From assembly GCA_032718475.1 (NCBI GenBank), contig JAUCBJ010009080.1:1-50092 (forward strand): a stretch of DNA of 50,092 bases, in the 5' to 3' direction. Numbering within the stretch: position 1 is the first letter of the stretch; every line of letters begins with the position of its first letter. The translations under genes were made by a program, and so were the position numbers. The notes beneath the pieces are model-generated. The model made no database searches. It saw nothing but the letters and a program-made list of their open reading frames with translations, and had not been told where the DNA came from. The DNA comes from Nemertoderma westbladi. Taxonomy: Eukaryota; Animalia; Xenacoelomorpha. Of the stretch, positions 3,874-47,150 are shown piece by piece.

Positions 3874-3939
3874 CATGGAATACTAAATATAGATTCTAGA
3901 AAATAATAGACTAAATAATTATATATTTAGTATTCCATG
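3874..3939. mobile_element. 66-bp miniature inverted-repeat element (18-bp perfect TIRs, 7-bp TSD)
   Basis: CATGGAATACTAAATATA (3874-3891) and its exact reverse complement TATATTTAGTATTCCATG (3922-3939), flanked on both sides by the direct repeat ATGGTGC (3867-3873 and 3940-3946). Confidence 0.85.
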
Positions 3940-4009
3940 ATGGTGCTTAAAAATGGTTATACGACAAGGAATGTTGTACTACGGTAGTGGGTCTACTACT
4001 TGGTAGGCC

Positions 4010-7000: not shown

Positions 7001-10000
7001 GTATATGGGCGTGGTACTCAGTGGGCGTTATAGAGATGTTGTAACTCAAAAGGATGTATAGGGGCGTATGGTACTCAGTGGGCGTTATATAGATGTTGTA
7101 ACTCAAAAGGATGTATAGGAGCGTGGTACTCAGTGGGCGTTATAGAGATGTTGTAACTCAAAAGGATGTATATGGGCGTGGTACTCAGTGGGCGTTATAG
7201 AGATGTTGTAACTCAAAAGGATGTATAGGAGCGTGGTACTCAGTGAGCGTTATAGAGATGTTGTAACTCAAAAGGATGTATAGGGGCGTGGTACTCAGTG
7301 GGTGTTGTAGAGATGTTGTAACTCAAAAGGATGTATAGGAGCGTGGTACTCAGTGGGCGTTATAGAGATGTTGTAACTCAAAAGGATGTATATGGGCGTG
7401 GTACTCAGTGGGCGTTATAGAGATGTTGTAACTCAAAAGGATGTATAGGAACGTATGGTACTCAGTGGGCGTTATAGAGATGTTGTAACTCAAAAGGATG
7501 TATAGGGGCGTGGTACTCAGTGGGCGTTATAGAGATGTTGTAACTCAAAAGGATATATAGGGGCGTGGTACTCAGTGGGCGTTATGGAGATGTTGTAACT
7601 CAAAAGGATGTATAGGGGCGTGGTACTCAGTGGGCGTTATAGAGATGTTGGAACCAAATAGGAGTTTGGGACTTGGTATTCAGTGGGCGTTATAGAGATG
7701 TTGTAACTCAAAAGGATGAATAGGGGCGTGGTACTCAGTGGGCGTTATAGAGATGTTGGAACCCAATAGGGGTTTGGGACTTGGTATTCAGTGGGCGTTA
7801 TAGAGATGTTGTAACTCAAAAGGATGAATAGGGGCGTATGGTACTCAGTGGGCGTTATAGAGATGTTGGAACCCAATAGGGGTTTGGGACTTGGTATTCA
7901 GTGGGCGTTATAGAGATGTTGTAACTCAAAAGGATGTATAGGGGCGTGGTACTAAGTGGGCGTTATAGAGATGTTGTAACTCAAAAGGATGTATAGGGGC
8001 GTGGTACTCAGTGGGCGTTATAGAGATGTTGTAACTCAAAAGGTTGTATAGGGGCGTGGTACTCAGTGGGCGTTATAGAGATGTTGTAACTCAAAAGGAT
8101 GTATAGGGGCGTGGTACTCAGTGGGCGTTATAGAGATGTTGTAACTCAAAAGGATGTATAGGGGCGTGGTACTCAGTGGGCGTTATAGAGATGTTGTAAC
8201 TCAAAAGGTTGTATAGGGGCGTGGTACTCAGTGGGCGTTATAGAGATGTTGTAACTTAAAAGGATGTATAGGGGCGTGGTACTCAGTGGGCGTTATAGAG
8301 ATGTTGTAACTCAAAAGGATGTATAGGGGCGTGGTACTCAGTGGGCGTTATAGAGATGTTGGAACCCAATAGGGGTTTGGGACTTGGTATTCAGTGGGCG
8401 TTATAGAGATGTTGTAACTCAAAAGGATGTATATGGGCGTGGTACTCAGTGGGAGTTATAGAGACGTTGTAACTCAAAAGGATGTATAGGGGCGTATGGT
8501 ACTCAGTGGGCGTTATAGAGATGTTGTAACTCAAAAGGATGTATAGGACGCGTTATAGAGATGTTGTAACTCAAAAGGATGTATATGGGCGTGGTACTCA
8601 GTGGTAGTTATAGAGATGTTGTAACTCAAAAGGATGTATAGGGGCGTATGGTACTCAGTGGGCGTTATATAGATGTTGTAACTCAAAAGGATGTATAGGG
8701 GCGTGGTACTCAGTGGGCGTTATAGAGATGTTGTAACTCAAAAGGATGTATAGGGGCGTGGTACTCAGTGGGCGTTATAGAGATGTTGTAACTCAAAAGG
8801 ATGTATAGGGGCGTGGTACTCAGTGGGCGTTATAGAGATGTTGTAACTCTAAAGGATGTATAGGGGCGTGGTACTCAGTGGGCGTTATAGAGATGTTGTA
8901 ACTCAAAAGGATGTATAGGAGCGTGGTACTCAGTGGGCGTTATAGAGATGTTGTAACTCAAAAGGATGTATATTGGCGTGGTACTCAGTGGGCGTTATAG
9001 AGATGTTGTAACTCAAAAGGATGTATAGGAGCGTGGTACTCAGGGGGCGTTATAGAGATGTTGGAACTCAAAAGGATGTATATGGGCGTGGTACTCAGTG
9101 GGCGTTATAGAGATGTTGTAACTCAAAAGGATGTATAGGGGCGTATGGTACTCAGTGGGCGTTATATAGATGTTGTAACTCAAAAGGATGTATAGGAGCG
9201 TGGTACTCAGTGGGCGTTATAGAGATGTTGTAACTCAAAAGGATGTATATGGGCGTGGTACTCAGTGGGCGTTATAGAGATGTTGTAACTCAAAAGGATG
9301 TATAGGAGCGTGGTACTCAGTGAGCGTTATAGAGATGTTGTAACTCAAAAGGATGTATAGGGGCGTGGTACTCAGTGGGTGTTGTAGAGATGTTGTAACT
9401 CAAAAGGATGTATAGGAGCGTGGTACTCAGTGGGCGTTATAGAGATGTTGTAACTCAAAAGGATGTATATGGGCGTGGTACTCAGTGGGCGTTATAGAGA
9501 TGTTGTAACTCAAAAGGATGTATAGGAACGTATGGTACTCAGTGGGCGTTATAGAGATGTTGTAACTCAAAAGGATGTATAGGGGCGTGGTACTCAGTGG
9601 GCGTTATAGAGATGTTGTAACTCAAAAGGATATATAGGGGCGTGGTACTCAGTGGGCGTTATGGAGATGTTGTAACTCAAAAGGATGTATAGGGGCGTGG
9701 TACTCAGTGGGCGTTATAGAGATGTTGGAACCAAATAGGAGTTTGGGACTTGGTATTCAGTGGGCGTTATAGAGATGTTGTAACTCAAAAGGATGAATAG
9801 GGGCGTGGTACTCAGTGGGCGTTATAGAGATGTTGGAACCCAATAGGGGTTTGGGACTTGGTATTCAGTGGGCGTTATAGAGATGTTGTAACTCAAAAGG
9901 ATGAATAGGGGCGTATGGTACTCAGTGGGCGTTATAGAGATGTTGGAACCCAATAGGGGTTTGGGACTTGGTATTCAGTGGGCGTTATAGAGATGTTGTA

Positions 10001-13000
10001 ACTCAAAAGGATGTATAGGGGCGTGGTACTAAGTGGGCGTTATAGAGATGTTGTAACTCAAAAGGATGTATAGGGGCGTGGTACTCAGTGGGCGTTATAG
10101 AGATGTTGTAACTCAAAAGGTTGTATAGGGGCGTGGTACTCAGTGGGCGTTATAGAGATGTTGTAACTCAAAAGGATGTATAGGGGCGTGGTACTCAGTG
10201 GGCGTTATAGAGATGTTGTAACTCAAAAGGATGTATAGGGGCGTGGTACTCAGTGGGCGTTATAGAGATGTTGTAACTCAAAAGGTTGTATAGGGGCGTG
10301 GTACTCAGTGGGCGTTATAGAGATGTTGTAACTTAAAAGGATGTATAGGGGCGTGGTACTCAGTGGGCGTTATAGAGATGTTGTAACTCAAAAGGATGTA
10401 TAGGGGCGTGGTACTCAGTGGGCGTTATAGAGATGTTGGAACCCAATAGGGGTTTGGGACTTGGTATTCAGTGGGCGTTATAGAGATGTTGTAACTCAAA
10501 AGGATGTATATGGGCGTGGTACTCAGTGGGAGTTATAGAGACGTTGTAACTCAAAAGGATGTATAGGGGCGTATGGTACTCAGTGGGCGTTATAGAGATG
10601 TTGTAACTCAAAAGGATGTATAGGACGCGTTATAGAGATGTTGTAACTCAAAAGGATGTATATGGGCGTGGTACTCAGTGGTAGTTATAGAGATGTTGTA
10701 ACTCAAAAGGATGTATAGGGGCGTATGGTACTCAGTGGGCGTTATATAGATGTTGTAACTCAAAAGGATGTATAGGGGCGTGGTACTCAGTGGGCGTTAT
10801 AGAGATGTTGTAACTCAAAAGGATGTATAGGGGCGTGGTACTCAGTGGGCGTTATAGAGATGTTGTAACTCAAAAGGATGTATAGGGGCGTGGTACTCAG
10901 TGGGCGTTATAGAGATGTTGTAACTCAAAAGGATGTATAGGGACGTGGTACTCAGGGGGCGTTATAGAGATGTTGGAACCCAATAGGGTTTGGGACTTGG
11001 TATTCAGTGGGCGTTATAGAGATGTTGGAACTCAAAAGGATGTATAGGGGCGTGGTACTCAGTGGGCGTTATAGAGATGTTGTAACTCAAAAGGATGTAT
11101 AGGGGCGTGGTACTCAGTGGGCGTTATAGAGATGTTGTAACTCAAAAGGATGTATAGGAGCGTGGTACTCAGGGGGCGTTATAGAGATGTTGGAACTCAA
11201 AAGGATGTATATGGGCGTGGTACTCAGTGGGCGTTATAGAGATGTTGTAACTCAAAAGGATGTATAGGGGCGTGGTACTCAGTGGGCGTTATAGAGATGT
11301 TGTAACTCAAAAGGATGTATAGGGGCGTGGTACTCAGTGGGCGTTATAGAGATGTTGTAACTCAAAAGGATGTATAGGGGCGTGGTACTCAGTGGGCGTT
11401 ATAGAGATGTTGTAACTCAAAAGGATGTATAGGGGCGTGGTACTCAGTGGGCGTTATAGAGATGTTGTAACTCAAAAGGATGTATAGGGGCGTGGTACTC
11501 AGTGGGCGTTATAGAGATGTTGTAACTCAAAAGGATGTATAGGGGCGTGGTACTCAGTGGGCGTTATAGAGATGTTGTAACTCAAAAGGATGTATAGGGG
11601 CGTGGTACTCAGTGGGCGTTATAGAGATGTTGTAACTCAAAAGGATGTATAGGGGCGTGGTACTCAGTGGGCGTTATAGAGATGTTGGAACCCAATAGGG
11701 GTTTGGGACTTGGTATTCAGTGGGCGTTATAGAGATGTTGTAACTCAAAAGGATGTATATGGGCGTGGTACTCAGTGGGAGTTATAGAGACGTTGTAACT
11801 CAAAAGGATGTATAGGGGCGTATGGTACTCAGTGGGCGTTATAGAGATGTTGTAACTCAAAAGGATGTATAGGACGCGTTATAGAGATGTTGTAACTCAA
11901 AAGGATGTATATGGGCGTGGTACTCAGTGGTAGTTATAGAGATGTTGTAACTCAAAAGGATGTATAGGGGCGTATGGTACTCAGTGGGCGTTATAGAGAT
12001 GTTGTAACTCAAAAGGATGTATAGGGGCGTGGTACTCAGTGGGCGTTATAGAGATGTTGTAACTCAAAAGGATGTATAGGGGCGTGGTACTCAGTGGGCG
12101 TTATAGAGATGTTGTAACTCAAAAGGATGTATAGGGGCGTGGTACTCAGTGGGCGTTATAGAGATGTTGTAACTCAAAAGGATGTATAGGGACGTGGTAC
12201 TCAGGGGGCGTTATAGAGATGTTGGAACCCAATAGGGTTTGGGACTTGGTATTCAGTGGGCGTTATAGAGATGTTGTAACTCAAAAGGATGTATAGGGGC
12301 GTGGTACTCAGTGGGCGTTATAGAGATGTTGTAACTCAAAAGGATGTATAGGGGCGTGGTACTCAGTGGGCGTTATAGAGATGTTGTAACTCAAAAGGAT
12401 GTATAGGAGCGTGGTACTCAGGGGGCGTTATAGAGATGTTGGAACTCAAAAGGATGTATATGGGCGTGGTACTCAGTGGGCGTTATAGAGATGTTGGAAC
12501 TCAAAAGGATGTATAGGGGCGTGGTACTCAGTGGGCGTTATAGAGATTTTGTAACTCAAAAGGATGTATAAGGGCGTGGTACTCAGTGGGCGTTATAGAG
12601 ATGTTGTAACTCAAAAGGATGTATAGGCATAGGGGCGTGGTACTCAGTGGGCGTTATAGAGATGTTGTAACTCAAAAGGATGTATAGGAGCGTGGTACTC
12701 AGGGGGCGTTATAGAGATGTTGGAACTCAAAAGGATGTATATGGGCGTGGTACTCAGTGGGCGTTATAGAGATGTTGGAACTCAAAAGGATGTATAGGAG
12801 CGTATGGTACTCAGTGGGCGTTATAGAGATATTGTAGCTCAAAAGGATGTATATGGGCGTGGTACTCAGGGGGCGTTATAGAGATGTTGGAACTCAAAAG
12901 GATGTATAGGGGCGTGGTACTCAGTGGGCGTTATAGAGATGTTGTAACTCAAAAGGATGTATAGGGGCGTGGTACTCAGTGGGCGTTATAGAGATGTTGT

Positions 13001-16000
13001 AACTCAAAAGGATGTATAGGGACGTGGTACTCAGGGGGCGTTATAGAGATGTTGGAACCCAATAGGGTTTGGGACTTGGTATTCAGTGGGCGTTATAGAG
13101 ATGTTGTAACTCAAAAGGATGTATAGTATAGGAGCGTGGTACTCAGTGGGCGTTATAGAGATGTTGTAACTCAAAAGGATGTATATGGGCGTGGTACTCA
13201 GAGGGCGTTATAGAGATGTTGTAACTCAAAAGGATGTATATGGGCGTGGTACTCAGTGGTAGTTATAGAGATGTTGTAACTCAAAAGGATGTATAGGGGC
13301 GTATGGTACTCAGTGGGCGTTATATAGATGTTGTAACTCAAAAGGATGTATAGTATAGGAGCGTGGTACTCAGTGGGCGTTATAGAGATGTTGTAACTCA
13401 AAAGGATGTATAGGACGCGTTATAGAGATGTTGTAACTCAAAAGGATGTATATGGGCGTGGTACTCAGTGGGCGTTATAGAGATGTTGTAACTCAAAAGG
13501 ATGTATATGGGCGTGGTACTCAGTGGTAGTTATAGAGATGTTGTAACTCAAAAGGATGTATAGGGGCGTATGGTACTCAGTGGGCGTTATATAGATGTTG
13601 TAACTCAAAAGGATGTATAGGGGCGTGGTACTCAGTGGGCGTTATAGAGATGTTGTAACTCAAAAGGATGTATAGGAGCGTGGTACTCAGTGGGCGTTAT
13701 ATAGATGTTGTAACTCAAAAGGATGTATATGGGCGTGGTACTCAGTGGGCGATATAGAGATGTTGTAACTCAAAAGGATGTATAGGAGCGTGGTACTCAG
13801 GGGGCGTTATAGAGATGTTGGAACTCAAAAGGATGTATAGGAACGTATGGTACTCAGTGGGCGTTATAGAGATGTTGTAACTCAAAAGGATGTATAGGGG
13901 CGTGGTACTCAGTGGGCGTTATAGAGATGTTGTAACTCAAAAGGATATATAGGGGCGTGGTACTCAGTGGGCGTTATAGAGATGTTGTAACTCAAAAGGA
14001 TGTATAGGGGCGTGGTACTCAGTGGGCGTTATAGAGATGTTGGAACCCAATAGGGGTTTGGGACTTGGTATTCAGTGGGCGTTATAGAGATGTTGTAACT
14101 CAAAAGGATGAATAGGGGCGTGGTACTCAGTGGGCGTTATAGAGATGTTGGAACCCAATAGGGGTTTGGGACTTGGTATTCAGTGGGCGTTATAGAGATG
14201 TTGTAACTCAAAAGGATGAATAGGGGCGTATGGTACTCAGTGGGCGTTATAGAGATGTTGGAACCCAATAGGGGTTTGGGACTTGGTATTCAGTGGGCGT
14301 TATAGAGATGTTGTAACTCAAAAGGATGTATAGGGCGTGGTACTCAGTGGGCGTTATAGAGATGTAACTCAAAAGGATGTATAGGGGCGTGGTACTCAGT
14401 GGGCGTTATAGAGATGTTGTAACTCAAAAGGTTGTATAGGGGCGTGGTACTCAGTGGGCGTTATAGAGATGTTGTAACTCAAAAGGATGTATAGGGGCGT
14501 GGTACTCAGTGGGCGTTATAGAGATGTTGTAACTCAAAAGGATGTATAGGGGCGTGGTACTCAGTGGGCGTTATAGAGATGTTGGAACCCAATAGGGTTT
14601 GGGACTTGGTATTCAGTGGGCGTTATAGAGATGTTGTAACTCAAAAGGATGTATATGGGCGTGGTACTCAGTGGGAGTTATAGAGACGTTGTAAGTCAAA
14701 AGGATGTATAGGGGCGTATGGTACTCAGTGGGCGTTATAGAGATGTTGTAACTCAAAAGGATGTATAGGGGCGTGGTACTCAGTGGGCGTTATAGAGATG
14801 TTGTAACTCAAAAGGATGTATAGGAGCGTGGTACTCAGTGGGCGTTATAGAGATGTTGTAACTCAAAAGGATGTATATGGGCGTGGTACTCAGTGGGCGT
14901 TATAGGGATGTTGTAACTCAAAAGGATGTATAGGAGCGTGGTACTCAGGGGGCGTTATAGAGATGTTGGAACTCAAAAGGATGTATATGGGCGTGGTACT
15001 CAGTGGGCGTTATAGAGATATTGGAACTCAAAAGGATGTATAGGAGCGTATGGTACTCAGTGGGCGTTATAGAGATATTGTAACTCAAAAGGATGTATAT
15101 GGGCGTGGTACTCAGGGGGCGTTATAGAGATGTTGGAACTCAAAAGGATGTATAGGGGCGTGGTACTCAGTGGGCGTTATAGAGATGTTGTAACTCAAAA
15201 GGATGTATAGGGGCGTGGTACTCAGTGGGCGTTATAGAGATGTTGTAACTCAAAAGGATGTATAGGGGCGTGGTACTCAGTGGGCGTTATAGAGATGTTG
15301 TAACTCAAAAGGATGTATAGGGGCGTGGTACTCAGTGGGCGTTATAGAGATGTTGGAACCCAATAGGGTTTGGGACTTGGTATTCAGTGGGCGTTATAGA
15401 GATGTTGTAACTCAAAAGGATGTATATGGGCGTGGTACTCAGTGGGAGTTATAGAGACGTTGTAAGTCAAAAGGATGTATAGGGGCGTATGGTACTCAGT
15501 GGGCGTTATAGAGATGTTGTAACTCAAAAGGATGTATAGGGGCGTGGTACTCAGTGGGCGTTATAGAGATGTTGTAACTCAAAAGGATGTATAGGAGCGT
15601 GGTACTCAGTGGGCGTTATAGAGATGTTGTAACTCAAAAGGATGTATATGGGCGTGGTACTCAGTGGGCGTTATAGGGATGTTGTAACTCAAAAGGATGT
15701 ATATGGGCGTGGTACTCAGTGGGCGTTATAGGGATGTTGGAACTCAAAAGGATGTATATGGGCGTGGTACTCAGTGGGCGTTATAGAGATATTGGAACTC
15801 AAAAGGATGTATAGGAGCGTATGGTACTCAGTGGGCGTTATAGAGATATTGTAACTCAAAAGGATGTATATGGGCGTGGTACTCAGGGGGCGTTATAGAG
15901 ATGTTGGAACTCAAAAGGATGTATAGGGGCGTGGTACTCAGTGGGCGTTATAGAGATGTTGTAACTCAAAAGGATGTATAGGGGCGTGGTACTCAGTGGG

Positions 16001-16299
16001 CGTTATAGAGATGTTGTAACTCAAAAGGATGTATAGGGGCGTGGTACTCAGTGGGCGTTATAGAGATGTTGTAACTCAAAAGGATGTATAGGGGCGTGGT
16101 ACTCAGTGGGCGTTATAGAGATGTTGTAACTCAAAAGGTTGTATATGGGCGTGGTACTCAGGGGGCGTTATAGAGATGTTGTAACTCAAAAGGATGTATA
16201 GGGGCGTGGTACTCAGTGGGCGTTATAGAGATGTTGTAACTCAAAAGGATGTATAGGGGCGTGGTACTCAGTGGGCGTTATAGAGATGTTGGAACTCAA
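4010..16299. repeat. Satellite A: 55-bp tandem array, ~12.3 kb, roughly 220 copies, with a 53-bp variant monomer and a 2077-bp higher-order repeat
   Basis: Monomer GGTACTCAGTGGGCGTTATAGAGATGTTGTAACTCAAAAGGATGTATAGGGGCGT starts at 4061 and 4116 (period 55). The variant monomer ends ...GTTGGAACCCAATAGGGGTTTGGGACTT. The copy number is estimated as length divided by period. Confidence 0.98.
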
Positions 16300-16665
16300 T
16301 GGTTGTGAACATTATCGGCATGTGAATCATTCATATAGTAGATAATTAAGAGGTTTGGAATTGAAGCTGTTTATAATGCTATGAAAATATGTTTCGTTTT
16401 ATAATTATTTGTACAAGATTTTTTAACAAACTAATCATATTTTACAGAATGAAAATGTTACATGTATTGAGATGAGCTTTACTATGTTGAATAAATAGTG
16501 AGTTACCAACTTACATCCAATTAACACTGAATAGGAATTTCAGCGTAATTATCAGGTATGTATAATTTAATTTAACTATTACTATGTTCTATTAAGTGGT
16601 AATTCACGAAAAAACCCAGTTCGTAATTCATAAACAAATACTACAATATATCATTGAGTAGTAAA

Positions 16666-19600
16666 ATGGCTAAAAGAAAACAAAAGTGTAGTAAGTGCGG
16701 AAGCTCAAAACATAATATTAGAACATGTTCTATGTGGAAGGACATAAAAGTTCCTCTAATGGAACAAGTGGAACTGGTTGAGCAACCTCAAGGAGAGAAA
16801 GAGCAATGGATGGAACAGATGGAACATAGGGAGGAACAGCAACAGGATGAACAGATGAATAATGGGGAGGAACTGCAACAGGAGCAACAGATGGAGAATG
16901 GGGAGGAACAGATGGAGAATGGGGAGGAACAGGTAGATAATGTGGAGGAACAGCAACAGGAGGAACAGGTATATAATGCAGAGGAACAGCATCATGAAGA
17001 ACATATGGAGAATGGGGAGGAACAGGTAGAGAAGGCGGAGGAACAGCAACAGGAGGAACAGGTAGAGAATGCGGGGGAACAGCAACAGGAAGAACAGATG
17101 GAGAATGGGGAGGAACAGCAACAGGAGCAACAGATGGAGAATGGGGAGGAACAGATGGGGAATGGGGAGGAACAGGTAGATAATGTGGAGGAACAGCAAC
17201 AGGAGGAACAGGTAGAGAATGCGGAGGAACAGCATCAGGAAGAACAGATGGAGAATGGGGAGGAACAGGTAGAGAATGCGGAGGAACAGCAACAGGAAGA
17301 ACAGATGGAGAATGGGGAGGAACAGCAGCAGGAGCAACAGATGGAGAATGGGGAGGAACAGCAACAGGAGCAACAGATGGAGAATGGAGAGGAACAGATT
17401 GAGAATGGGGAGGAACAGGTAGAGAATGTGGAGGAACAGCAACAGGAGGAACAGGTAGAGAATGCAGGGGAACAGCAACAGGAGGAACAGATAGAGAATG
17501 CAGAGGAACAGCAACAGGAGGAACAGGTAGAGAATGCAGATGAACAGCAACAGGAAGAACAGTCGGAGAATCGGAAGGAACAGCAACAGGAGCAACAGAT
17601 GGAGAATGGGGAGGAACAGCAACAGGATGAACAGATGGAACACGGGGAGGGACATCAAGGGGATGAGCAGGGAGATTGGGAGGAGGTACATCGAAGAGGA
17701 AGAAAAAGGGGCCAGGATAGCCAAGGAGGTCAACGAAGGAGAAGAAGAGAAGGAACACCTCCTGAATTTCACGCAGAGCCAGGGACGCAACATAAAGATA
17801 CAGCCAGTGAGGGGGGGCAGTACCAGAGTAGGACAGGGCCATCGAGAACGCAATTTATTGTGCTGCAAGGCTCCAATAATTGTCCTCCACAGGAATGGCT
17901 TGATATCACATGCCAGTTAAATGGTCTACATATACAACCCAATCGAGGTGGTGGGGATTGTTTGTACTATTCAATTTTACAAGGTTTAGACATGCATGAT
18001 TTTAACCGGCATTACACCGTAGCATCACTACGCAAGCTTTCGGCAGATGAGATGGAGAGAAATCCCCTCCCTTATGCTAACCGGTTTATTCCACCTACTC
18101 CTGATGAGATAGCTGGTATGCATCCCCGACCTGCCAGTAACTTTCATAATTTTGTCTCATCAACACGACGGTCAGAATGGGGAACAGAATTAAATTTAAT
18201 ATCACTGGCAAATTGCCTGCCAGTAAGTATCTGTTTGCTATCAACAGAATCTCGAGGGGTCCTACATTTCGGCGATAGCCCAGGTGTTATTTATGTTGCT
18301 CACTGGCCAGGACATTTTGCAGCACTCCAGCCTGGAACATACAGTGGGTGTAATTCCATTCCACATACTAGGCATCATCAGAATTTGCCGACAGATAATC
18401 AACCATCAGCATCAGGAGTAGGTTCCAATACTTCAGACACTACAAACCACCATCCAACACCAAGTGATCAACCAACAACATTCGGAAACCTTCCACATAG
18501 AACACCACAACAACCAGCAGCCACCATTCCGAATCACAGAGGACATCCCATCAGACCACCTCAGCCACTACACAGCTCTCAAGCACCACCAATTATAACT
18601 ACAGAACCTCATAATTTCGAAGTGCCACCAACCACAGCTGCAGAACCTCAAAATAGATCCGCAGCCACACCAACTGCAGCTGAAGAATCTCGAAATAGAT
18701 GTACAGCAACACCAACTAACAACCCGATGGCACAAATTTCTTCGGATCTCCCTTCAAATGAGTCATCACTTTGTGACTGTTGCCAACGTCATTCCACTCA
18801 TATATATGACCTTCAAATCATTTCACGAGACCCCTGTAAAGGGAAGAAATATGGCCGTCTTATACAGCGAAGACCTTACCTACTTCCTGTATGCTGCATG
18901 CAGTGCAATACCTACCTAAACCAAGACAATACTCATATACGTAGTAATTGGAACATAATGTGGCCTGCTGTTTTATATACATGCCTTTCATCTGAGACAT
19001 TAATGCCACAAACTAAACATACTGAATTATGGCACCAAATTCCCCCATCAATACAAGAAATGTGGTCCTCACTTCCATTAGTTCCATCATTTGTAACAAG
19101 ATTTAAAGATTTTACACCACAAATTCGAGAATTTCAACACAATATTTCTGCCAATACATTGGGAAGCCTTAGAAAGGCCCTGAACAGGGAATGTTTTCCA
19201 GAAGTTAAGTGTCCCCTTGGTTGTTGGCAGTGGATTGATAAATGCAAAAATGTGTCTTTTCTGGACTACCTAGCATATGCAAACATTGTGACACTCCCTC
19301 AATCAAACAGAGAAAACTTCCGTTCAGCCAGATCAGACTGGCCACAATGTCCACGTCAGTATCTTTTAAAGTGGAACATCACCCCTGGCATTGTTGTAGA
19401 TAAGAAAGAGGGACTTTCTGTGTTGGTCTGCGAAGACCATAAATCAATGAAACAACAAGTCATTCATTTACAAACAAATCCATTTTATGAAGATGGTGCT
19501 GTTCAATCAGTTGAAGTGTTTGCTCCTGCAACTTTGACTCCAAATGTTGTCAGACAGGGCAGACTCAACAAGTGGAACAGCTCTAACTATGTCATCAACT

Positions 19601-22600
19601 GCATTGGTGGTTATCATGGTTTGTCGACATTTACTCTTGGTGCTTCTGAATTGGATTCTCCCCCAATTGGACAGCAGCAGATACTAAGAGAGGGTTTATG
19701 TCTGAAATATAGAGATGACATACGGGAGACATATCTCAATAGCACATGGGGAGGTGCTAGTAATATAGTAAGATCGAAACTAAGTGGTCTAGAGAACAGC
19801 AGAATGACACCTGTTGGTGACGATCTTAAGAAATGTCTTGATGGTGGATCTTACCTATCCATAGGTGATTCTTTTCACATCTGGAAAATATGTCGACTAC
19901 AATATGAAAAACAGGAGACTCAAAGTACCAATGTCAAATATCTGTTTCAGGCAGAAAGCTTAACATTATCTATTGTTCATCCAATGAATGATGTTGGGGC
20001 TTACCCATTTAGAGTAAATATTTCTTCTATCTATGATTCTCTTGGAACTGCCATTACCACTATTCTTCTTTACAACCGAAGGATCCATCAGCTTTGTCTT
20101 GAAAAGTATATATCAGATAATGATAATTTCTTGGGTTGGGTACTTGCTACAGTGGCTACATTATCAGGATTAAACTGGCCATCAAAATCCTGCAACAAAA
20201 ATATTGTCTTTGACAAAATCGCCAAGGATCCGTGCGTATTATCAAATTCAGATGCTCCATATATAGACAAAGTTATTAAATTACTGCTTCGGTTATCTAA
20301 TACTTCAGCACTACGAACAATTGACGAGATAATAAGCCGTTCGGAGACTCGTCCTGATTTATATGAATTAGTAATATGCCAGAACACTGCCTCTCCAGGG
20401 ATTCAACCAAAAACACGTATTGGAGAGTTTAGCCTGATGTTGGTATTAACAGAGGACAAAGAGGACTCTATTATTTTCCGCTGGGAGCCGACTATGCGGT
20501 TTTGGTGTATTGGGAAAGGAGGCAATAGAGTAGCGACTACAGCTTGCAACAAAACATCCTGGTTCCATACTTGGCGACTGGCCTTATACATCAATACCAA
20601 TACCAATGAACATCGAGATGATATCATTAAAAGATCTCTAGGTGGCCAACGGCGGATAACCTGTGGAAAGCATGGTCTACATCTAATAAATGAGCCCAGA
20701 GTTTCCAATGTCAAATGTGCAGTTGAGAAATGTCGCAAACCTGCAAACCATCGCTGTCCTTATGGAATATTATCATACCATTGCCTTGTTGCTGTATGCC
20801 TGAAGCATTTCCGAATATATTCCATTAGTGATGCCTCAATAATCACAATCAGGTATCACCAAACTCCGCTATTTGACAACCAACCAATAGATCTCAATCA
20901 AGGCGAAATAGATTCTGATGCAGAATTGGAGGAACTCTTACTTGATGTCAACATTGATAACGGACATCAAAGCGATGAAGTACATGACAATTCTGGAATA
21001 GTGATTCCTGAAAATCCAGAGGAAGACTCAGATTGGGAGTATTTGGAAGATCTTCAGAACTTCTTGACAGATGAAAACACTCTCCCATCAGGAGATATAC
21101 CATCTTCTGCAAATAGCAGAAAACAACTGTTCCCTGTTACTGGAGCTCATCATTTTCCGAGCCACTGTCTTCTTAATGATGTTTATGGAATACTTCACCG
21201 AGAACATTCGAAGCATCCAAGTGCTAAGAAAGCACAGCTACTGAACGAAATTGTAGCCAAGAATTCTGCCCCATCAACTTCTTTATTATACCCAGAAGGA
21301 AACATATTTCCCACAACCTTCTGGTTTAACCATAGTGGATCCATTATAGGTGCAATACCTCATCATATATTTAGCTCAAAGAAAGAGGCAACATATAATA
21401 AAAAATCATGCCACAATGTGTCATCTAACAAAGATATGTTAATGATTAGATTGCGAGATGGTGATTTATCGACCTCCCATGATTTGAACTACCTACACTG
21501 GGTTGCAGATATGCGCATGAATATAAAGTTAAATAACCGCCCATCTTCTGTCTTTTTTAATCGAGGTTTAGAATTCCTTGATGAATCACGTGCAACAAAA
21601 GTTAATATTCATGATACACCACTAGAATTTGAAGAATCTAATAGTAGTAGAGTTGTGAAAGAACTGGCAGCTCTCATAAATAAATATCCATGGTCGTATT
21701 TTTTCACTATAACAGCTAATGAAAGTTCGACTATGGGACTTGCACCAATCATTCAGTCAATGAAAGATTTTTGTGAAGAAACTGATTCGGAGTATAGCAA
21801 CATTTATGATGCCAATGTGGTACTCATTTGTAGGGCATGGGAACGAGTGGCACAGTATATGTTGGACTATATTGAAACCAGTCCTGAAGAAAGGCTCGGT
21901 CCAGTCCACCATATGTTTGCCCGTGCAGAGTTTCAGGATCAGGGAGCCAGAGGAAACAAGTGCCATTTCCATGGAGGCATTTCCCTATTACCAGAACCAA
22001 TCCAGACCACCATGGGCCGTGTGACATGTGATCCTGACCGTCTGCCTTTTGGACCGGAGGATTTCCACAACTTGCTGGATGCTGGAATTGTAGATTCATG
22101 GGAGGATTTTCATCAAGCTAAAAGTATAGTAGAAATGGTAACAATACATAACTGTAAAGCAGCTTCTGAAAGATGTCACAAACGAAAGGACAAAGACGGT
22201 AATAAAATCTGCAGGGTACCATCACATCCAACAAGTTCCTCTAATTGGTTTCAAGTAAAGAAAGATCTTTATTCAAAAGAAATCTATACAATTCTGGAGG
22301 AGATTGGACTTGCACAGAGAGTTCTAAACAAAGAATATCAGCTGGAATGGGAACTGGCTCCTAATCTAACTGCAGGGCGTTATCATTATTCAACAAGGAG
22401 CCCTCCAACATATTTACCAACCATTGCCGAAATCGCCTTAGCTCTGAGGAGCTCTTTTAATTGTCAGGTCACTGACCGTAAATTTTCCAGCTCTTATTTG
22501 TGTAAATATATAGGAGGTAAGGAAGAGAGGAGGCAAATAAAGGTGTTTGGTACAAAGAACCCTGATGTAGTAAGGACAGAAGTTGGGGAGCAAGAAAACA

Positions 22601-25600
22601 TTAAAATATCAGGGGTTAAAATAAACCAAACCATTGAGAAAGAGAAAGCAACAAATTCTCGTGAGATTGGAATACCAGAGCTAGCCAGATTTGCGCTTGG
22701 GTATCCATACACACGATGTACCGCAGACTTCGTTCATATAAGCACTCTTCCCCCTGAGTATCGATCAGCTGTTTCTGCAAATAAATCTAACGAACAAATT
22801 GAGGGTTCATATGGTACCTACATCGCCAGCATTGAAACTAGGATCAATCTTCCTCAATGGCGTCACTTCTCTCACAGCCAACAAAGGCTTATACGTGAGT
22901 ATGTCTCATCAAATTATAAACTTGGTAACACTGAGCGGTTTAATATACGCCCTCCAGAAATTTCCATAGTAAATAAGCTAATTGACTATCATGAAATATT
23001 TGTCATCAAGAGTAAATTGCCATCGCATTTTGTAAATGATGATATTCACCAGCAGCAATGGATAGATGGCCTCAACAACCAAGTTAAAATACGCAGCTGT
23101 GCAATTACCAGGGCCATCAACTACATACAAAGTCAGCCAGAGAAAGAGGGGAAGAATGACATTTTGATTCTTCTTAATGATATTCAAGTCGAAGATATTG
23201 ATGGCAATCTCCACAAACGTTTTGTAGTTTATAGCAAGGAAACCATTGCTGTAATACCAAACATAGGTGCAAGTCATCGTATTAAATTTCTGTACCATAT
23301 CATATTAACTCTCGGCCAATTCATAACAGAACTAGATATAATGGAAGTCGCATCATTTCCAAAGGCATTCCAGAATGCAGGCCTAATCATTGACCACAAT
23401 AATCCAACACAGGATGAGGCAAACAATATACTCAGAAGATATGTTGACGAGCAACTCCAGACATATTGCTTTGGTGCAAAACAGTTTGAGCAATACTTGA
23501 ACAATGCTAAATCTGCTATAGACGAAATCCTTTTGTCAGATGGACGTATATCTTGTGATGTCCCTTCGGTATCATATATAGCTCTTCGTGAAGAAACATC
23601 AGAGCGTATCTATACAATCGAAAGATCGCGGAAATTGTATCTGGTGGAAACAAACCATAGCGATCTTGTCACAAAGATGCACCTCCCAACCACTGAAGCT
23701 TTTATGGAGGCCACATTCGATGATCCCTTAAATTGGGATCCAGAATTGCCAGTAGCCGCACACCAATCAATGGCTTCCCAAACTGAACAAAACAATGCAC
23801 TGCAAACCATAAAACAATTGGTCCACAAATTTTTAAATCCATCCACTGATCAATTACCCAAGTTTTTACTGATAACTGGACCACCAGGTTGTGGAAAGAC
23901 TTTGCTCATACAAATTGCGACCTTGTATGTCATATCACTGGGTCTCAATACTGCACTTCTTTCACTGACAAGTGAACGTTCAAGAACACTTGGTGGATTC
24001 CACATACATATTGCATTTCCCGTACCAAGTAAGAGTTTGAAACATGCACATCCCCATATTCTAGCAAAGCAATGTATACAAAGTCTTAAAAAAGACCCAA
24101 TGAAACTAATCTTATTGAAACGTACTAATGTCTTTATATTGGAAGAGGTAGGGCTAATCTCGGCGGAATTTTATGGTATTCTAGATACCACAATGAAGAA
24201 TATCATGAATAATGATCTACCATTTGGTGGTAAACTGCTTATAATGAATGGGGACCAACATCAACTGCCTCCTATTGATGGTCGGCCCATATTTATGTCA
24301 ACAAACCTTATAACTTCCTTCCAGGTAATTCAGCTAAAACATTATGTACGTGCAGCCTCCGATATGAATCTCCAAAATTGCTTGGAATCAATGAGGCAGA
24401 CAGTAATTCCACCATTACAACAAAATGAGATTCTAAACACCATAATGGCAAAAGCCAAATTTGTTAATACATGGAGTGATGTACCCCAAGAAGCAATGCG
24501 AATAGTAGGATCACGAAAGGCAGAAGCAAAAGTGGTTAAAGAATTCCTACAAAGAAAGACCTCAGATAGGAATACTCGTACTGTTGTATCTAAATCAAAA
24601 GATGAAGTACAACACCACTATGATTGGGCTCCAGCTAGTACATATGTAACGCAGCAGTTGAACCGTCATTGTTTGGAGCCGGAAGAGTTGGTACTGTTCG
24701 AAGGTGCCATCACAAGGTTGACCCGCAACCACCAGCAGGGGAACACCCAATACTCCCAAGGTCAAGTTGCCGTTGTGCAGAACATCCCTGAAGAGTTTAA
24801 TGAAGATGCCCTGGTAACTGTAGCACTGGTTCCACCAGGGGTACGGAATTTATTGCCAGTTTTAGCTTCATGGCAACGTGTTTCATTGGGGCGTACTACG
24901 ACCATACCATCAATAGTTGGGGTTCAACTTCTTCAAGGTCGAAGAACTCAATATCCACTTCGATACTTTATTGCAAATACAATACATCGAATAATGGGTG
25001 AAACTTGCCCTATAGCTGCAACTCAAATTTCATCAGCAGAACGGATATTTAGGCTCTGGGAGAGAGAGCAGCTTTTAGTTCTAATTTCACGAGTACCTGC
25101 ATTCCAGTATTTATATTTTGTTGGACCCAGAGCAGAGACACGTCAGGCATTGGCTGAAACATTATCACGTACATCAATGTGGGCTGGTCCTATTGAAGAA
25201 CGTTTAACAGCTCTTGATATCCATAACACTAACCCACAACGTGTTATTACTGATGTTCAACACCCTCTACGGCCATTTTACAGAGAAATTCCTGAATCGG
25301 AGACTGGTTATGTGTATATGCTAATATCAACTGCGCACCCATCCATAAGCTATATAGGTCAAACTGGTAGGAGTATGTTGACTAGACTACGCGAACACAA
25401 CAGTGGAAATGGCTCCATATTCACCAACCGAACCGAGTTCCATCCGTGGGCAATCTTTGCCTACATATGTCAATTTCCTTCGGAGGCTGAAGAAGAAAGA
25501 ACTGCACGACGAATGGATGTAGAGAGATTCGTCCATAGAAATATTCGCCGAAACAGCGGTCCTCAATACGTTCTAAATCAATTAATTCGAATTGTTGCAG

Positions 25601-25710
25601 AATATAATAGACTGCATCGTACCTCTTTAGTTGTCCACCAGTGCGGATCTCTCTCAAATCCAGCGCGATCAGGAAATGTTGAGTTTGAAGATGACGCACC
25701 TGGTGGATAA
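16666..25710 (+). CDS. Helitron/Helentron-like RepHel polyprotein: zinc knuckle, E/Q repeats, OTU protease, HUH Rep, PIF1-like helicase, GIY-YIG nuclease (3014 aa)
   Basis: Uninterrupted 9045-nt frame. The ORF track starts at a TTG (16654), but the first ATG is 16666 in a good Kozak context (AAAATGG). Motifs in order: CSKCGSSKHNIRTC; GGGDCLYYS..WGTE..HF; FFTITAN; RAEFQ..HFH; YLCKY; GPPGCGKT; PFGG..GDQHQLPP; QYPL..TIH; ISRV; GYVY..YIGQT..RLREHN. Confidence 0.93.
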   Translation: MAKRKQKCSKCGSSKHNIRTCSMWKDIKVPLMEQVELVEQPQGEKEQWMEQMEHREEQQQDEQMNNGEELQQEQQMENGEEQMENGEEQVDNVEEQQQEEQVYNAEEQHHEEHMENGEEQVEKAEEQQQEEQVENAGEQQQEEQMENGEEQQQEQQMENGEEQMGNGEEQVDNVEEQQQEEQVENAEEQHQEEQMENGEEQVENAEEQQQEEQMENGEEQQQEQQMENGEEQQQEQQMENGEEQIENGEEQVENVEEQQQEEQVENAGEQQQEEQIENAEEQQQEEQVENADEQQQEEQSENRKEQQQEQQMENGEEQQQDEQMEHGEGHQGDEQGDWEEVHRRGRKRGQDSQGGQRRRRREGTPPEFHAEPGTQHKDTASEGGQYQSRTGPSRTQFIVLQGSNNCPPQEWLDITCQLNGLHIQPNRGGGDCLYYSILQGLDMHDFNRHYTVASLRKLSADEMERNPLPYANRFIPPTPDEIAGMHPRPASNFHNFVSSTRRSEWGTELNLISLANCLPVSICLLSTESRGVLHFGDSPGVIYVAHWPGHFAALQPGTYSGCNSIPHTRHHQNLPTDNQPSASGVGSNTSDTTNHHPTPSDQPTTFGNLPHRTPQQPAATIPNHRGHPIRPPQPLHSSQAPPIITTEPHNFEVPPTTAAEPQNRSAATPTAAEESRNRCTATPTNNPMAQISSDLPSNESSLCDCCQRHSTHIYDLQIISRDPCKGKKYGRLIQRRPYLLPVCCMQCNTYLNQDNTHIRSNWNIMWPAVLYTCLSSETLMPQTKHTELWHQIPPSIQEMWSSLPLVPSFVTRFKDFTPQIREFQHNISANTLGSLRKALNRECFPEVKCPLGCWQWIDKCKNVSFLDYLAYANIVTLPQSNRENFRSARSDWPQCPRQYLLKWNITPGIVVDKKEGLSVLVCEDHKSMKQQVIHLQTNPFYEDGAVQSVEVFAPATLTPNVVRQGRLNKWNSSNYVINCIGGYHGLSTFTLGASELDSPPIGQQQILREGLCLKYRDDIRETYLNSTWGGASNIVRSKLSGLENSRMTPVGDDLKKCLDGGSYLSIGDSFHIWKICRLQYEKQETQSTNVKYLFQAESLTLSIVHPMNDVGAYPFRVNISSIYDSLGTAITTILLYNRRIHQLCLEKYISDNDNFLGWVLATVATLSGLNWPSKSCNKNIVFDKIAKDPCVLSNSDAPYIDKVIKLLLRLSNTSALRTIDEIISRSETRPDLYELVICQNTASPGIQPKTRIGEFSLMLVLTEDKEDSIIFRWEPTMRFWCIGKGGNRVATTACNKTSWFHTWRLALYINTNTNEHRDDIIKRSLGGQRRITCGKHGLHLINEPRVSNVKCAVEKCRKPANHRCPYGILSYHCLVAVCLKHFRIYSISDASIITIRYHQTPLFDNQPIDLNQGEIDSDAELEELLLDVNIDNGHQSDEVHDNSGIVIPENPEEDSDWEYLEDLQNFLTDENTLPSGDIPSSANSRKQLFPVTGAHHFPSHCLLNDVYGILHREHSKHPSAKKAQLLNEIVAKNSAPSTSLLYPEGNIFPTTFWFNHSGSIIGAIPHHIFSSKKEATYNKKSCHNVSSNKDMLMIRLRDGDLSTSHDLNYLHWVADMRMNIKLNNRPSSVFFNRGLEFLDESRATKVNIHDTPLEFEESNSSRVVKELAALINKYPWSYFFTITANESSTMGLAPIIQSMKDFCEETDSEYSNIYDANVVLICRAWERVAQYMLDYIETSPEERLGPVHHMFARAEFQDQGARGNKCHFHGGISLLPEPIQTTMGRVTCDPDRLPFGPEDFHNLLDAGIVDSWEDFHQAKSIVEMVTIHNCKAASERCHKRKDKDGNKICRVPSHPTSSSNWFQVKKDLYSKEIYTILEEIGLAQRVLNKEYQLEWELAPNLTAGRYHYSTRSPPTYLPTIAEIALALRSSFNCQVTDRKFSSSYLCKYIGGKEERRQIKVFGTKNPDVVRTEVGEQENIKISGVKINQTIEKEKATNSREIGIPELARFALGYPYTRCTADFVHISTLPPEYRSAVSANKSNEQIEGSYGTYIASIETRINLPQWRHFSHSQQRLIREYVSSNYKLGNTERFNIRPPEISIVNKLIDYHEIFVIKSKLPSHFVNDDIHQQQWIDGLNNQVKIRSCAITRAINYIQSQPEKEGKNDILILLNDIQVEDIDGNLHKRFVVYSKETIAVIPNIGASHRIKFLYHIILTLGQFITELDIMEVASFPKAFQNAGLIIDHNNPTQDEANNILRRYVDEQLQTYCFGAKQFEQYLNNAKSAIDEILLSDGRISCDVPSVSYIALREETSERIYTIERSRKLYLVETNHSDLVTKMHLPTTEAFMEATFDDPLNWDPELPVAAHQSMASQTEQNNALQTIKQLVHKFLNPSTDQLPKFLLITGPPGCGKTLLIQIATLYVISLGLNTALLSLTSERSRTLGGFHIHIAFPVPSKSLKHAHPHILAKQCIQSLKKDPMKLILLKRTNVFILEEVGLISAEFYGILDTTMKNIMNNDLPFGGKLLIMNGDQHQLPPIDGRPIFMSTNLITSFQVIQLKHYVRAASDMNLQNCLESMRQTVIPPLQQNEILNTIMAKAKFVNTWSDVPQEAMRIVGSRKAEAKVVKEFLQRKTSDRNTRTVVSKSKDEVQHHYDWAPASTYVTQQLNRHCLEPEELVLFEGAITRLTRNHQQGNTQYSQGQVAVVQNIPEEFNEDALVTVALVPPGVRNLLPVLASWQRVSLGRTTTIPSIVGVQLLQGRRTQYPLRYFIANTIHRIMGETCPIAATQISSAERIFRLWEREQLLVLISRVPAFQYLYFVGPRAETRQALAETLSRTSMWAGPIEERLTALDIHNTNPQRVITDVQHPLRPFYREIPESETGYVYMLISTAHPSISYIGQTGRSMLTRLREHNSGNGSIFTNRTEFHPWAIFAYICQFPSEAEEERTARRMDVERFVHRNIRRNSGPQYVLNQLIRIVAEYNRLHRTSLVVHQCGSLSNPARSGNVEFEDDAPGG
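16687..16728 (+). other. CCHC zinc knuckle (C-X2-C-X4-H-X4-C) at the RepHel N-terminus
   Basis: Translates to CSKCGSSKHNIRTC, with exact knuckle spacing, preceded by the basic stretch KRKQK. Confidence 0.8.
16800..17670 (+). repeat. Coding minisatellite (36-bp and 21-bp units) encoding an acidic Glu/Gln tract
   Basis: Units such as GAGAATGGGGAGGAACAGCAACAGGAGCAACAGATG (ENGEEQQQEQQM) and GAGAATGGGGAGGAACAGATG (ENGEEQM). All unit lengths are multiples of 3. Confidence 0.95.
17930..18330 (+). other. OTU-family cysteine protease (deubiquitinase-like) domain
   Basis: Catalytic Cys motif GGGDCLYYSI (Cys codon at 17959), helix VASLRKLSADEM, WGTELNLISLAN (18178) and catalytic His in GHF (18313). 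This order and spacing match OTU domains, which are known cargo of Helentrons. Confidence 0.85.
21650..22770 (+). other. HUH-Y2 rolling-circle Rep (transposase) domain, Helentron/Helitron2-like
   Basis: Motif I FFTITAN (21700-21720); motif II RAEFQ-x9-HFH (HUH at 21964-21972); H-x-C..C..CR zinc-binding-like segment (~22147-22215); motif III YLCKY (22495-22509) preceded by FNCQV. The downstream REIGIPE..LGYP..FVHISTLPPEYR resembles the Helentron RE-x-SAQEA..FINT-x-PP-x-ER block. Confidence 0.85.
23780..25120 (+). other. PIF1/RecD-like superfamily 1B helicase domain
   Basis: Walker A GPPGCGKT (23878-23901); Walker B FILEEVGL (EE at 24142-24147); PFGG (24220) and motif III GDQHQLPPI (24250); motif IV LKHYVRA; motif V QYPLRYFIANTIHRIMGET (24949); motif VI QLLVLISRV (25069-25095). 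Confidence 0.9.
25306..25650 (+). other. GIY-YIG endonuclease domain, SLX1-like
   Basis: GYVYMLIS-x7-YIGQT-x6-RLREHNSGNGSIFT-x6-PWAIFAYICQFPS, then a candidate catalytic Glu in MDVER (25522). This parallels SLX1 VYLL..YVGFT..RRVQQHNGG..GA-x2-T..PWEMVLVVHGFPS..E. Confidence 0.85.
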
Positions 25711-25761: not shown

Positions 25762-27760
25762 CATGAGTGTATGTTTGCCCGTACTTGTGTAGAAGAATGC
25801 TTTGCTAATTCATACCACAATCTATTTTGCTCCACTTACTTTCATATTTTGCCAAGTATGAGGTGAGTGTATGTTTGCCCGTACTTGTGTAGAAGAATGC
25901 TTTGCTAATTCATACCACAATCAATTTTGCTCCACTTTCATATTTTGCCATGTATGAGGTGAGTGTATGTTTGCCCGGACTTGTGTAGAAGAATGCTTTG
26001 CCAATTCATACCACAATCCATTTTGCTCCACTTTCATATTTTGCCAAGTATGAGGTGAGTGTATGTTTGCCCGTACTTGTGTAGAAGAATGCTTTGCTAA
26101 TTCATACCACAATCAATTTTGCTCCACTTTCATATTTTGCCATGTATGAGGTGAGTGTATGTTTGCCCGGACTTGTGTAGAAGAATGCTTTGCCAATTCA
26201 TACCACAATCCATTTTGCTCCACTTTCATATTTTGTCATGTATGAGGTGAGTGTATGTTTGCCCGTACTTGTGTAGAAGAATGCTTTGCCAATTCATACC
26301 ACAATCAATTTTGCTCCACTTTCATATTTTGCCATGTATGAGGTGAGTGTATGTTTGCCCTTACTTGTGTAGAAGAATGCTTTGCCAATTCATACCACAA
26401 TCTATTTTGCTCCACTTTCATATTTTGCCATGTATGAGGTGAGTGTATGTTTGCCCGTACTTGTGTAGAAGAATGCTTTGCCAATTCTTACCTCAATCAA
26501 TTTGGCTCCACTTTCATATTTTGCCAAGGATGAGGTGAGTGTATGTTTGCCCGTACTTGTGTAGAATGCTTTGCTAATTCATACCACAATCCATTTTGAT
26601 CCATATTAATATTTTGTCATGTATGAGGTGAGTGTATGTTTGCCCGTACTTGTGTAGAAGAATGCTTTGCCAATTCTTACCACGATCCATTTTGCTCCAC
26701 TTTCATATTTTGCCAAGGATGCGGTGAGTGTGTGTTTGCCCGTACTTGTGTAGAATGCTTTACCAATTATACCACAATCCATTTTGATCCAATTAATATT
26801 TTGCCCAAGTATGAGGTGAGTGTGTGTTTGCCCGTACTTGTGTAGAATGCTTTGCTAATTCATACCACAATCCATTTTGATCCATATTAATATTTTGTCA
26901 TGTATGAGGTGAGTGTATGTTTGCCCGTACTTGTATAGAAGAATGCTTTGCCAATTTATACCACAATCCATTTTGCTGCACTTTCATATTTTGCCATGTA
27001 TGAGGTGAGTGTAGGTTTGGCCGTACTTGTGTAGAAGAATGCTTTGCCAATTCATACCACAATCCATTTTGCTCCACTTTCATATTTTGCCAAGGATGCG
27101 GTGAGTGTATGTTTGCCCGTACTTGTGTAGAATGCTTTACCAATTATACCACAATCCATTTTGCTCCTCTTTCATATTTTGCCAAGGATGCGGTGAGTGT
27201 GTGTTTGCCCGTACTTGTATAGAAGAATGCTTTGCCAATTCATACCACAATCCATTTTGCTGCACTTTCATATTTTGCCATGTATGAGGTGAGTGTATGT
27301 TTGGCCGTACTTGTGTAGAAGAATGCTTTGCCAATTCATACCACAATCCATTTTGCTCCACTTTCACATTTTGCCAAGTATGAGGTGAGTGTATGTTTGC
27401 CCGTACTTGTATAGAAGAATGCTTTGCCAATTCGTACCACAATCCATTTTGCTGCACTTTCATATTTTGCCAAGTATGAGGTGAGTGTGTGTTTGCCCGT
27501 ACTTGTGTAGAATGCTTTACCAATTATACCACAATCCATTTTGCTCCACTTTCATATTTTGCCAAGTAAGAGGTGAGTGTATGTTTGCCCTTACTTGTGT
27601 AGAAGAATGCTTTGCCAATTCATACCACAATCAATTTTGCTCCACTTACTTTAATATTTTGTCCAAGTATGAGGTGAGTGTATGTTTGCCCGTACTTGTG
27701 TAGAATGCTTTGCCAAATCATACCACAATACATTTGCTCCACTTTAAAGTTTTGCCTTAG
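25762..27760. repeat. Satellite B, block 1: 96-bp tandem array (~21 copies; 93-100 bp variants)
   Basis: Monomer TATGAGGTGAGTGTATGTTTGCCCGTACTTGTGTAGAAGAATGCTTTGCCAATTCATACCACAATCCATTTTGCTCCACTTTCATATTTTGCCAAG. AGGTGAG occurs at 25861 and 25957 (period 96). Confidence 0.97.
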
Positions 27761-30461: not shown

Positions 30462-30608
30462 TATCACCCGGGCATGAGGTCACGCTGTTTACCTGGGCAC
30501 GGAGTCACGCTGTTCACCTATCTCACCCGGACGCCGGGTCACACTTTTCACCTGTCTTACCCGGACGCAGGGTCACGATTATTATTAGGATTCACGATCT
30601 AGTCACGA
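30462..30608. repeat. Short GC-rich degenerate tandem repeat (34-bp unit) containing a hairpin
   Basis: GTCAC recurs at 30479, 30504, 30538 and 30572. Hairpin ACCCGG-ACG-CCGGGT at 30525-30539. TCACGAT occurs three times in 30573-30609. Confidence 0.6.
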
Positions 30609-31037
30609 TATAGGACAAATTATAATAAAAAACAAATAAATAGATAAATTAAAATAAACAAAACATAATAGAAAACAAAGTAAAAAACACTAATAATAAA
30701 ACCAACATGTGATTTGTATGCCGGTTCGTCAAGTTGTAAAAGTAATACAAACTGCGGTTTGTGTCCGGCTATTAATGATATATCCTCTTCTAGCATGCTG
30801 CACCACAATAAACAAATCATAATTTATCATGATAAATTTCACCACTTATCTTTTCAAATTTTGTTCTGTAAGTTTAATATTTTTATACTGTTAATTAATA
30901 TTTAGGACTACTTATATAAATATAAATATTCGAATTACTTTATTAATTATCAATATTTATGTATATAAATAAATATCATCGAAATATAAAAAAAATAATT
31001 AATAAACATTAACAAAAAAGAGAAAAAAAAGTAAATA

Positions 31038-47110: not shown

Positions 47111-47150
47111 AGGTAGGTAGGTAGGCAGGTAGGTAGGTAGGTAGGTAGGT
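47111..47150. repeat. (AGGT)10 microsatellite terminating satellite D
   Basis: Ten AGGT units (one AGGC variant) directly abut the last satellite D monomer. Confidence 0.95.

Follow-up and report, generated by a model that had tools for sequence, protein, structure and literature searches.

The 50,092-nt window from Nemertoderma westbladi (the whole stretch of DNA that was analysed, to which all coordinates refer) has a single long open reading frame, 16627-25710, which lies on the + strand, as do all domains described below. From the ORF list and the translation, the first ATG is at 16666 and the stop codon at 25708-25710, and this intronless single ORF (16666..25710) encodes a complete transposase polyprotein of 3014 aa with the domain order zinc knuckle, OTU, predicted USP-fold, HUH-Y2 Rep, Pif1 helicase and C-terminal GIY-YIG. 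The sequence-only reading of this DNA had placed Rep motifs I-III, a PIF1 helicase and a C-terminal GIY-YIG domain in one frame, and the motifs were found where claimed: Rep motif I at 21694, HUH at 21958-21975, Y2 at 22495-22515, Walker A at 23878 and the GIY/YIG strands at 25306 and 25351, while in the translation the candidate catalytic codons are Arg2907 (25384) and Glu2953 (25522). The gene start had been put at 21650, which is in fact the start of the Rep core; the ORF is about twice the length first reported, and the N-terminal half omitted earlier contains a CCHC knuckle, Glu/Gln repeats, an OTU domain and ~950 family-conserved residues.

This N-terminal half begins with a CX2CX4HX4C motif read from the translation (16687..16728), which we take to be a zinc knuckle, followed by Glu/Gln-rich low-complexity repeats with periods of 36-243 bp (16762..17676, translation and repeat scan) and an OTU cysteine-protease domain with both the Cys and His motifs (17923..18345; Pfam PF02338, 37.3 bits with a sub-stretch of the polyprotein, cut-off 23.3). 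Next is a Cys/His/Trp-rich region conserved in the family by profile alignment (18763..19845). Residues 698-1400 were modelled (pLDDT 75); residues 698-1100 gave no fold match, the match lists being filled mostly by the neighbouring USP-like part. That part (19969..20613, residues 1102-1316) is a predicted USP/UCH-fold domain, identified by structural match of the model to USP46 (VIA-align Z 9.8, rmsd 4.6, 192 aligned) with almost all 50 rows being USP folds, while Foldseek returned only E 0.03-0.2 and nothing at E 0.001. The conserved Cys of the USP/UCH Cys box was not found at the helix start in the 33 aligned family rows of this domain. A Z near 10 counts as moderate for the USP fold, and the domain, the function of which we infer, is likely a pseudo-deubiquitinase. 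It is followed by a near-invariant Cys/His zinc-finger-like module from C1333 to H1381 (20662..20808, 30-33 of 33 rows). DUF6570 had no Pfam match at E 1 in the polyprotein, and a profile of the Helentron DUF6570 region found no full match in 158 family proteins (hhalign prob 3; a remote homology is possible).

The pre-Rep region and HUH-Y2 Rep nuclease (21163..22530) were delimited by alignment columns and hhalign, and the catalytic residues are almost invariant among the 83 rows with at least 80% profile cover (E1755 83/83, H1767 83/83, H1769 82/83, Y1944 82/83 and Y1948 81/83). In hhalign the Rep matched that of a Helentron (prob 97.3); a sub-stretch matched Pfam Helitron_like_N under the cut-off (23.8 bits, E 5.7e-5, cut-off 28.9), and the Rep profile had no match at E 10 in the PDB, including Helraiser (7lcc). 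A family-conserved linker (22531..23775), collinear with Helentron RepHel in profile comparison, leads to a Pif1-family SF1B helicase (23812..25155), which was recognised with the whole protein by Pfam PF05970 (53.9 bits, cut-off 25.9) and by PDB matches to Pif1 and Helraiser (7lcc, E 3.5e-7). Profile comparison aligned the family with a Helentron in collinear order across 1082 columns, from the pre-Rep region to the helicase (prob 99.9), which identifies the family as Helitron-like RepHel. The arrangement that defines the Helitron-like superfamily was present, with an HUH-Y2 Rep preceding a Pif1 helicase within a single RepHel-homologous protein.

The C-terminal domain (25291..25635), delimited by Pfam, alignment and model, has a GIY-YIG fold of the SLX1 type, as proposed from the sequence. 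Pfam scored it at 30.5 bits with the whole protein and 35.7 with the tail alone (cut-off 22.6), and the tail model (pLDDT 88.5, 51 rows) matched SLX1 and At-HIGLE exclusively in the Foldseek top 10 (E 9e-6 to 2e-3). These were also the top 8 VIA rows (Z 8.8-10.6, vs Z 4.9 for I-TevI), the best structural match having Z 10.6, rmsd 2.9 and 114 aligned. Fungal Slx1 depends on Slx4 and carries a RING domain, and neither Slx4 nor RING is present at the C-terminus of the polyprotein. The likeness to SLX1/At-HIGLE consists of the fold and the positions of the catalytic Tyr, Arg and Glu, whereas identity is only ~20-24%, the domain is fused to a transposase, the tail has no C-terminal RING, and its activity is predicted. 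The best PDB sequence match of the tail was Slx1 (E 0.0013), with R2907 aligned to Cg-Slx1 Arg36, an active-site residue of an enzyme that, in the available portion of PMC4407285, cleaves branched but not duplex or nicked DNA, and the tail has the features of the SLX1 lineage as defined in the accessible part of PMC9071465. Among 137 rows with at least 60% cover, conservation was high for Y2884 (128/137), Y2896 (113/137), G2898 (125/137), H2911 (117/137) and N2912 (130/137), and the two residues singled out beforehand, R2907 and E2953, occupy conserved columns with 111/137 each. All four core catalytic residues were found in 107/137 and all seven in 100/137 at a median identity of ~30%, which requires selection on catalysis. 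The copy in the window has itself drifted at SLX1 hallmark positions, with H2926, Q2936 and V2956 where the majority have R, G and W.

In a word-seeded search, residues 1640-3014 matched 9 of 3920 candidates (28-46% identical), the named hosts being the tunicate Styela clava, with two divergent members, and the ostracod Cyprideis torosa; Pfam GIY-YIG was above cut-off in 6 of the 9, weak in 2 and absent from 1 ending inside the domain. A HMMER search using the last 835 residues yielded 315 clusters at 50% identity with E no higher than 1e-30, the best 150 of which were listed, with a slight bias toward proteins carrying GIY-YIG since the query included it. The family sample comprised 158 proteins including the query, and domain profiles were made from the first 10 family proteins. 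GIY-YIG was present in 141/158, and in 89/98 of the subset in which Rep and helicase both occur. Of the 17 proteins without it, 13 terminate at most 71 residues past the helicase, and 3 of the other 4 show degenerate remnants by eye. The domain is therefore kept by homologues, and both a one-off fusion and a chance reading of a fused architecture are rejected by this retention together with the conserved catalytic columns. The two top Atlas matches were PIF1+GIY-YIG clusters (0.98 and 0.93), the second of which has diatoms as the commonest phylum among the 4 members with a record and serves as a lead only. The same domain order was seen at 22 metagenome loci, 8 of which are broken by stops or frameshifts. 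Directly downstream of one family member (locus L005), 134-bp inverted repeats (5781-5914 and 12731-12864, 97% alike) surround 7 kb of ORFs without clear Pfam matches. Helicase and GIY-YIG distances co-vary across 129 proteins (rho 0.41, 0/300 permutations as high), and the nearest GIY neighbour is within the three nearest helicases for 87/129, consistent with a single old capture inherited with the element.

The ORF is flanked by two tandem arrays found by repeat scan, both putative parts of the element: a 55-bp array (4010..16299) ending 366 bp ahead of the ATG, and a 96-bp array (25764..27756) starting 54 bp past the stop, of which a related 94-bp array at 31038-35113 is the resumption. The two are split in phase by a 3.3-kb AT-rich stretch (27757-31037) with TGCC on both sides, a possible 4-bp duplication, and with a 360-bp inverted pair inside (29015-29364 and 29957-30318, 77% alike). 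Without spacer from the 94-bp array, a 12-kb array of 106-bp units (35113-47150) follows and ends in a TAGG microsatellite, a layout that we take to be reminiscent of non-autonomous Helentron derivatives. Duplications of 140-240 bp just 3' of the ORF were found at 2/9 related loci examined, and tandem repeats are described within some Helentron-derived elements in the part of PMC4067079 available. Elsewhere in the window there is a 50-bp tandem array of 9.5 copies (49554-50026), a short interspersed repeat of very high depth that includes 13-bp tandem units (1089-1350, 4/4 runs aligned), and an 868-bp segment (2650-3517) holding a high-depth repeat, which is missing from contigs joining 2649 to 3518 in three runs and is likely a polymorphic insertion.

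HLE2 ends have subterminal inverted repeats, a terminal stem-loop and a TT target, while HLE1 ends have a 5' TC, a 3' hairpin and CTRR, and an AT target. Helitron-like elements in general are recognised by dispersed copies that have defined ends and lack a target duplication. Self-comparison of the window and contig alignments revealed neither element ends nor a target site or an empty site. With regard to subterminal repeats, window self-comparison and exact 10-mers between candidate ends gave no shared 10-mer of note, and there was no strong hairpin between the stop codon and the 96-bp array; a likeness between 28000-28130 and 47150-47240 was discarded (score 66, shuffles up to 85). Contigs aligned over 1-4070 show a drop in summed depth after ~3808 in three runs, and 3945-4070 has little or no cover in runs X2 and X3, both of which include the ORF. 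A variable junction near 3813 could produce such a pattern, but gaps and contig depth are no proof, and no end is claimed. Nor is one claimed from loci L003 and L004, a single pair sharing 9.5 kb and differing upstream of L003:197 and L004:1414. A perfect 18-bp inverted repeat with a 30-nt loop (3874-3939) lies 70 bp ahead of the 55-bp array and is a candidate terminal hairpin.

Three DNA runs from two studies contain variants 90-99% alike that span the whole ORF. Among the 40 best-supported differences listed (584 others), 25 are synonymous vs 22% expected, and 0/40 make stops; none of the listed sequencing runs containing the ORF is RNA. The 90% cluster of one relative has 165 whole and partial members, the 15 listed being 363-2686 aa on separate contigs. 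The near-identical and divergent variants, synonymous excess, broken loci and large cluster amount to transposon-like behaviour.

For placement against Helentrons (HLE2) and canonical Helitrons (HLE1), the references were 120 Helentrons and putative HLE1 ORFs on MAG contigs of apparent eukaryotic origin, the latter picked by their match to a canonical Helitron Rep motif. Most of the 36 canonical Helitron Rep-motif matches in prokaryote assemblies (L023-L058) are Helitron-like ORFs, 11 loci being in one MAG, and they are likely eukaryotic contamination of species-representative genomes. No AP/EEP endonuclease follows the helicase in any of the 158 family proteins, compared with 101/120 Helentrons, and the family GIY-YIG was found in 0/120 Helentrons. 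The two domains are mutually exclusive in this sample, bearing out the proposal of a distinct lineage with GIY-YIG in place of the AP endonuclease. Rep and helicase trees, which the sequence-only reading had suggested as a check, were quick LG+G4 trees with SH-aLRT only, of 31 of the 158 family proteins, 10-11 HLE2, 7-13 HLE1 and 13 bacterial Pif1 rows; the single fungal HLE2-type helicase was too short for the Rep tree, and HLE2 subgroups a, c and d and proto-Helentron were left out. In both trees the family forms one clade (support 100, stem lengths 0.99 and 1.2 changes per column) outside the sampled Helentrons and HLE1 references. At the deeper level a family+HLE1 grouping had support 93, but AU rejected neither family+HLE2 (p 0.455) nor HLE1+HLE2 (p 0.443). 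On the helicase profile, family members score 337-582 bits and all others at most 102, with bacterial Pif1s ranking above the two HLE2-type proteins listed (86 and 78).

The family resembles Helentrons (HLE2b; Thomas et al. 2014, PMC4067079, as far as that text was accessible) in the large ORF with OTU, HUH-Y2 Rep, Pif1 and a C-terminal fused endonuclease, but theirs is AP/EEP and that of the window SLX1-type GIY-YIG. An AP/EEP endonuclease fused after the helicase, which characterises HLE2b, is absent, and DUF6570 upstream of Rep, proposed as HLE2 marker in the available sections of PMC11417382, was not found. It shares HUH-Y2 Rep and Pif1 with canonical Helitrons (HLE1, Helraiser, PDB 7lcc), which are without a C-terminal nuclease and from which its Rep has diverged (cross-score medians 0-22 bits); relative to the HLE1 references chosen by Rep motif, it neither nests within HLE1 nor ends at the helicase. 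The boldest reading, with somewhat less than an even chance, is that of a third major Helitron-like group of the same depth as HLE1 and HLE2. It would be defined by an SLX1-type nuclease and a pseudo-USP module, captured long ago and since inherited vertically, would span hundreds of 50%-identity clusters in marine animals and protists, and would have been missed because standard Rep profiles score it below threshold. Compatible with either mechanism discussed below, a fast-evolving HLE2 sublineage is also a serious candidate, if one that falls short of an even chance, and may correspond to HelenSM92 or one of the unclassified clusters of HELIANO. The family scores better on HLE2 than on HLE1 profiles (median 20 vs 0 for Rep, 68 vs 37 for helicase), so a best-score classifier would assign it to HLE2; the AU result for family+HLE2 and the occurrence of OTU and USP-like domains in HLE2 point the same way. 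This is opposed by the missing DUF6570-region and AP-endonuclease matches, by the long-stemmed, fully supported clade outside the sampled Helentrons, and by Rep cross-scores that are higher between HLE1 and HLE2 (65-75) than between the family and HLE2 (20-46).

The literature on Helitrons or Helentrons with GIY-YIG or SLX1, as far as accessible and with Repbase, Dfam and most subscription journals outside the search, had one direct precedent: the available sections of the HELIANO paper (PMC11417382) report GIY-YIG captured by the moss HLE2 family HelenSM92 of Sphagnum magellanicum. Like the present family, this is an HLE with RepHel and a captured GIY-YIG, and it may be a member of the lineage in the window; unlike it, HelenSM92 is a single family given one sentence there, and was compared by description only, with domain position and type not stated in those sections. 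Those sections do not name GIY-YIG among the stably captured domains, none of the four variants listed in the accessible part of Heringer and Kuhn has GIY-YIG, and the fusion is not described in the portions available of PMC6431247, PMC3627910, PMC12910113 and PMC10294476. The novelty suggested by the sequence-only reading is thus incomplete: the clade-wide fusion is otherwise undescribed in these sources, but GIY-YIG capture as such is already represented by HelenSM92. The family is a real, widespread and barely described branch of Helitron-like elements.

The ORF very probably encodes a rolling-circle transposase, and on balance we lean toward its being that of an autonomous rolling-circle element in which the fused SLX1-type nuclease cuts branched transposition DNA; the GIY-YIG nuclease is probably active and used in transposition, with branch processing somewhat preferred over target nicking. 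The nuclease step is suggested by the SLX1-type fold and the substrate range of Slx1 (PMC4407285 and PMC9071465, in the parts available), a fold alone giving no substrate. As in the accessible account of Helraiser (PMC5876387), the HUH-Y2 Rep would nick and transfer one strand and Pif1 would unwind, with circular intermediates as donors. Strand transfer would leave a flap or fork at the donor or target, and the tethered GIY-YIG may then nick near the branch point in an SLX1-like manner, such that the element would resolve the branch itself and not depend on host repair. The link to RepHel may substitute for SLX4, and the OTU and USP-fold domains likely act on ubiquitinated host proteins or in self-processing. 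Counting against this explanation, canonical Helitrons transpose without such a nuclease domain.

The main alternative to branch cutting, though an unlikely one, is that the GIY-YIG nicks the target duplex, opens the insertion site and sets target preference, as has been proposed for the Helentron AP endonuclease. The two nucleases take the same C-terminal place and exclude each other, and target nicking was hypothesised for the Helentron endonuclease by Thomas et al. (PMC4067079, available part), whereas the fold is nearer to structure-selective SLX1/HIGLE than to I-TevI (among compared rows without a Penelope GIY-YIG structure) and Cg-Slx1 leaves duplex DNA uncut (PMC4407285, available part). 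More improbable still is a domain kept chiefly as a structural or DNA-junction-binding appendage with optional catalysis: at least one core catalytic residue is missing in 30/137 relatives (about a fifth), and a subclade near the protein of the window retains degenerate GIY-YIG domains (P0028, P0037, P0044 and P0099), which suggests that cutting is dispensable in some sublineages, but the joint conservation of four and of seven residues at such low identity speaks against this for the family at large. A domesticated host gene or viral replication gene would agree with an intact ORF under purifying selection and ends that were not found, but is very improbable given the several divergent variants within the same runs, the relatives with broken copies or large mixed clusters, the intronless 9-kb ORF, the two divergent Styela clava members, and viral contigs with no relative (0/7 pattern matches confirmed) and no match to two Rep-motif patterns.

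According to the accessible part of PMC8788227, what the accessory endonuclease of Helentrons does has yet to be determined. The present clade opens this question to testing, as it carries an unrelated structure-selective nuclease in the corresponding place and includes both active and degenerate natural forms, and it hints at the step that limits rolling-circle integration. A further consequence is that many eukaryotic transposons, a sizeable group, are overlooked or wrongly labelled by repeat-annotation profiles; the window offers an intact copy suited to reconstitution. If the family is indeed a third major group, it would mark the second time that RepHel independently acquired a nuclease at this place, and rolling-circle transposition would include a branch-resolution step that elements have been selected to perform for themselves.
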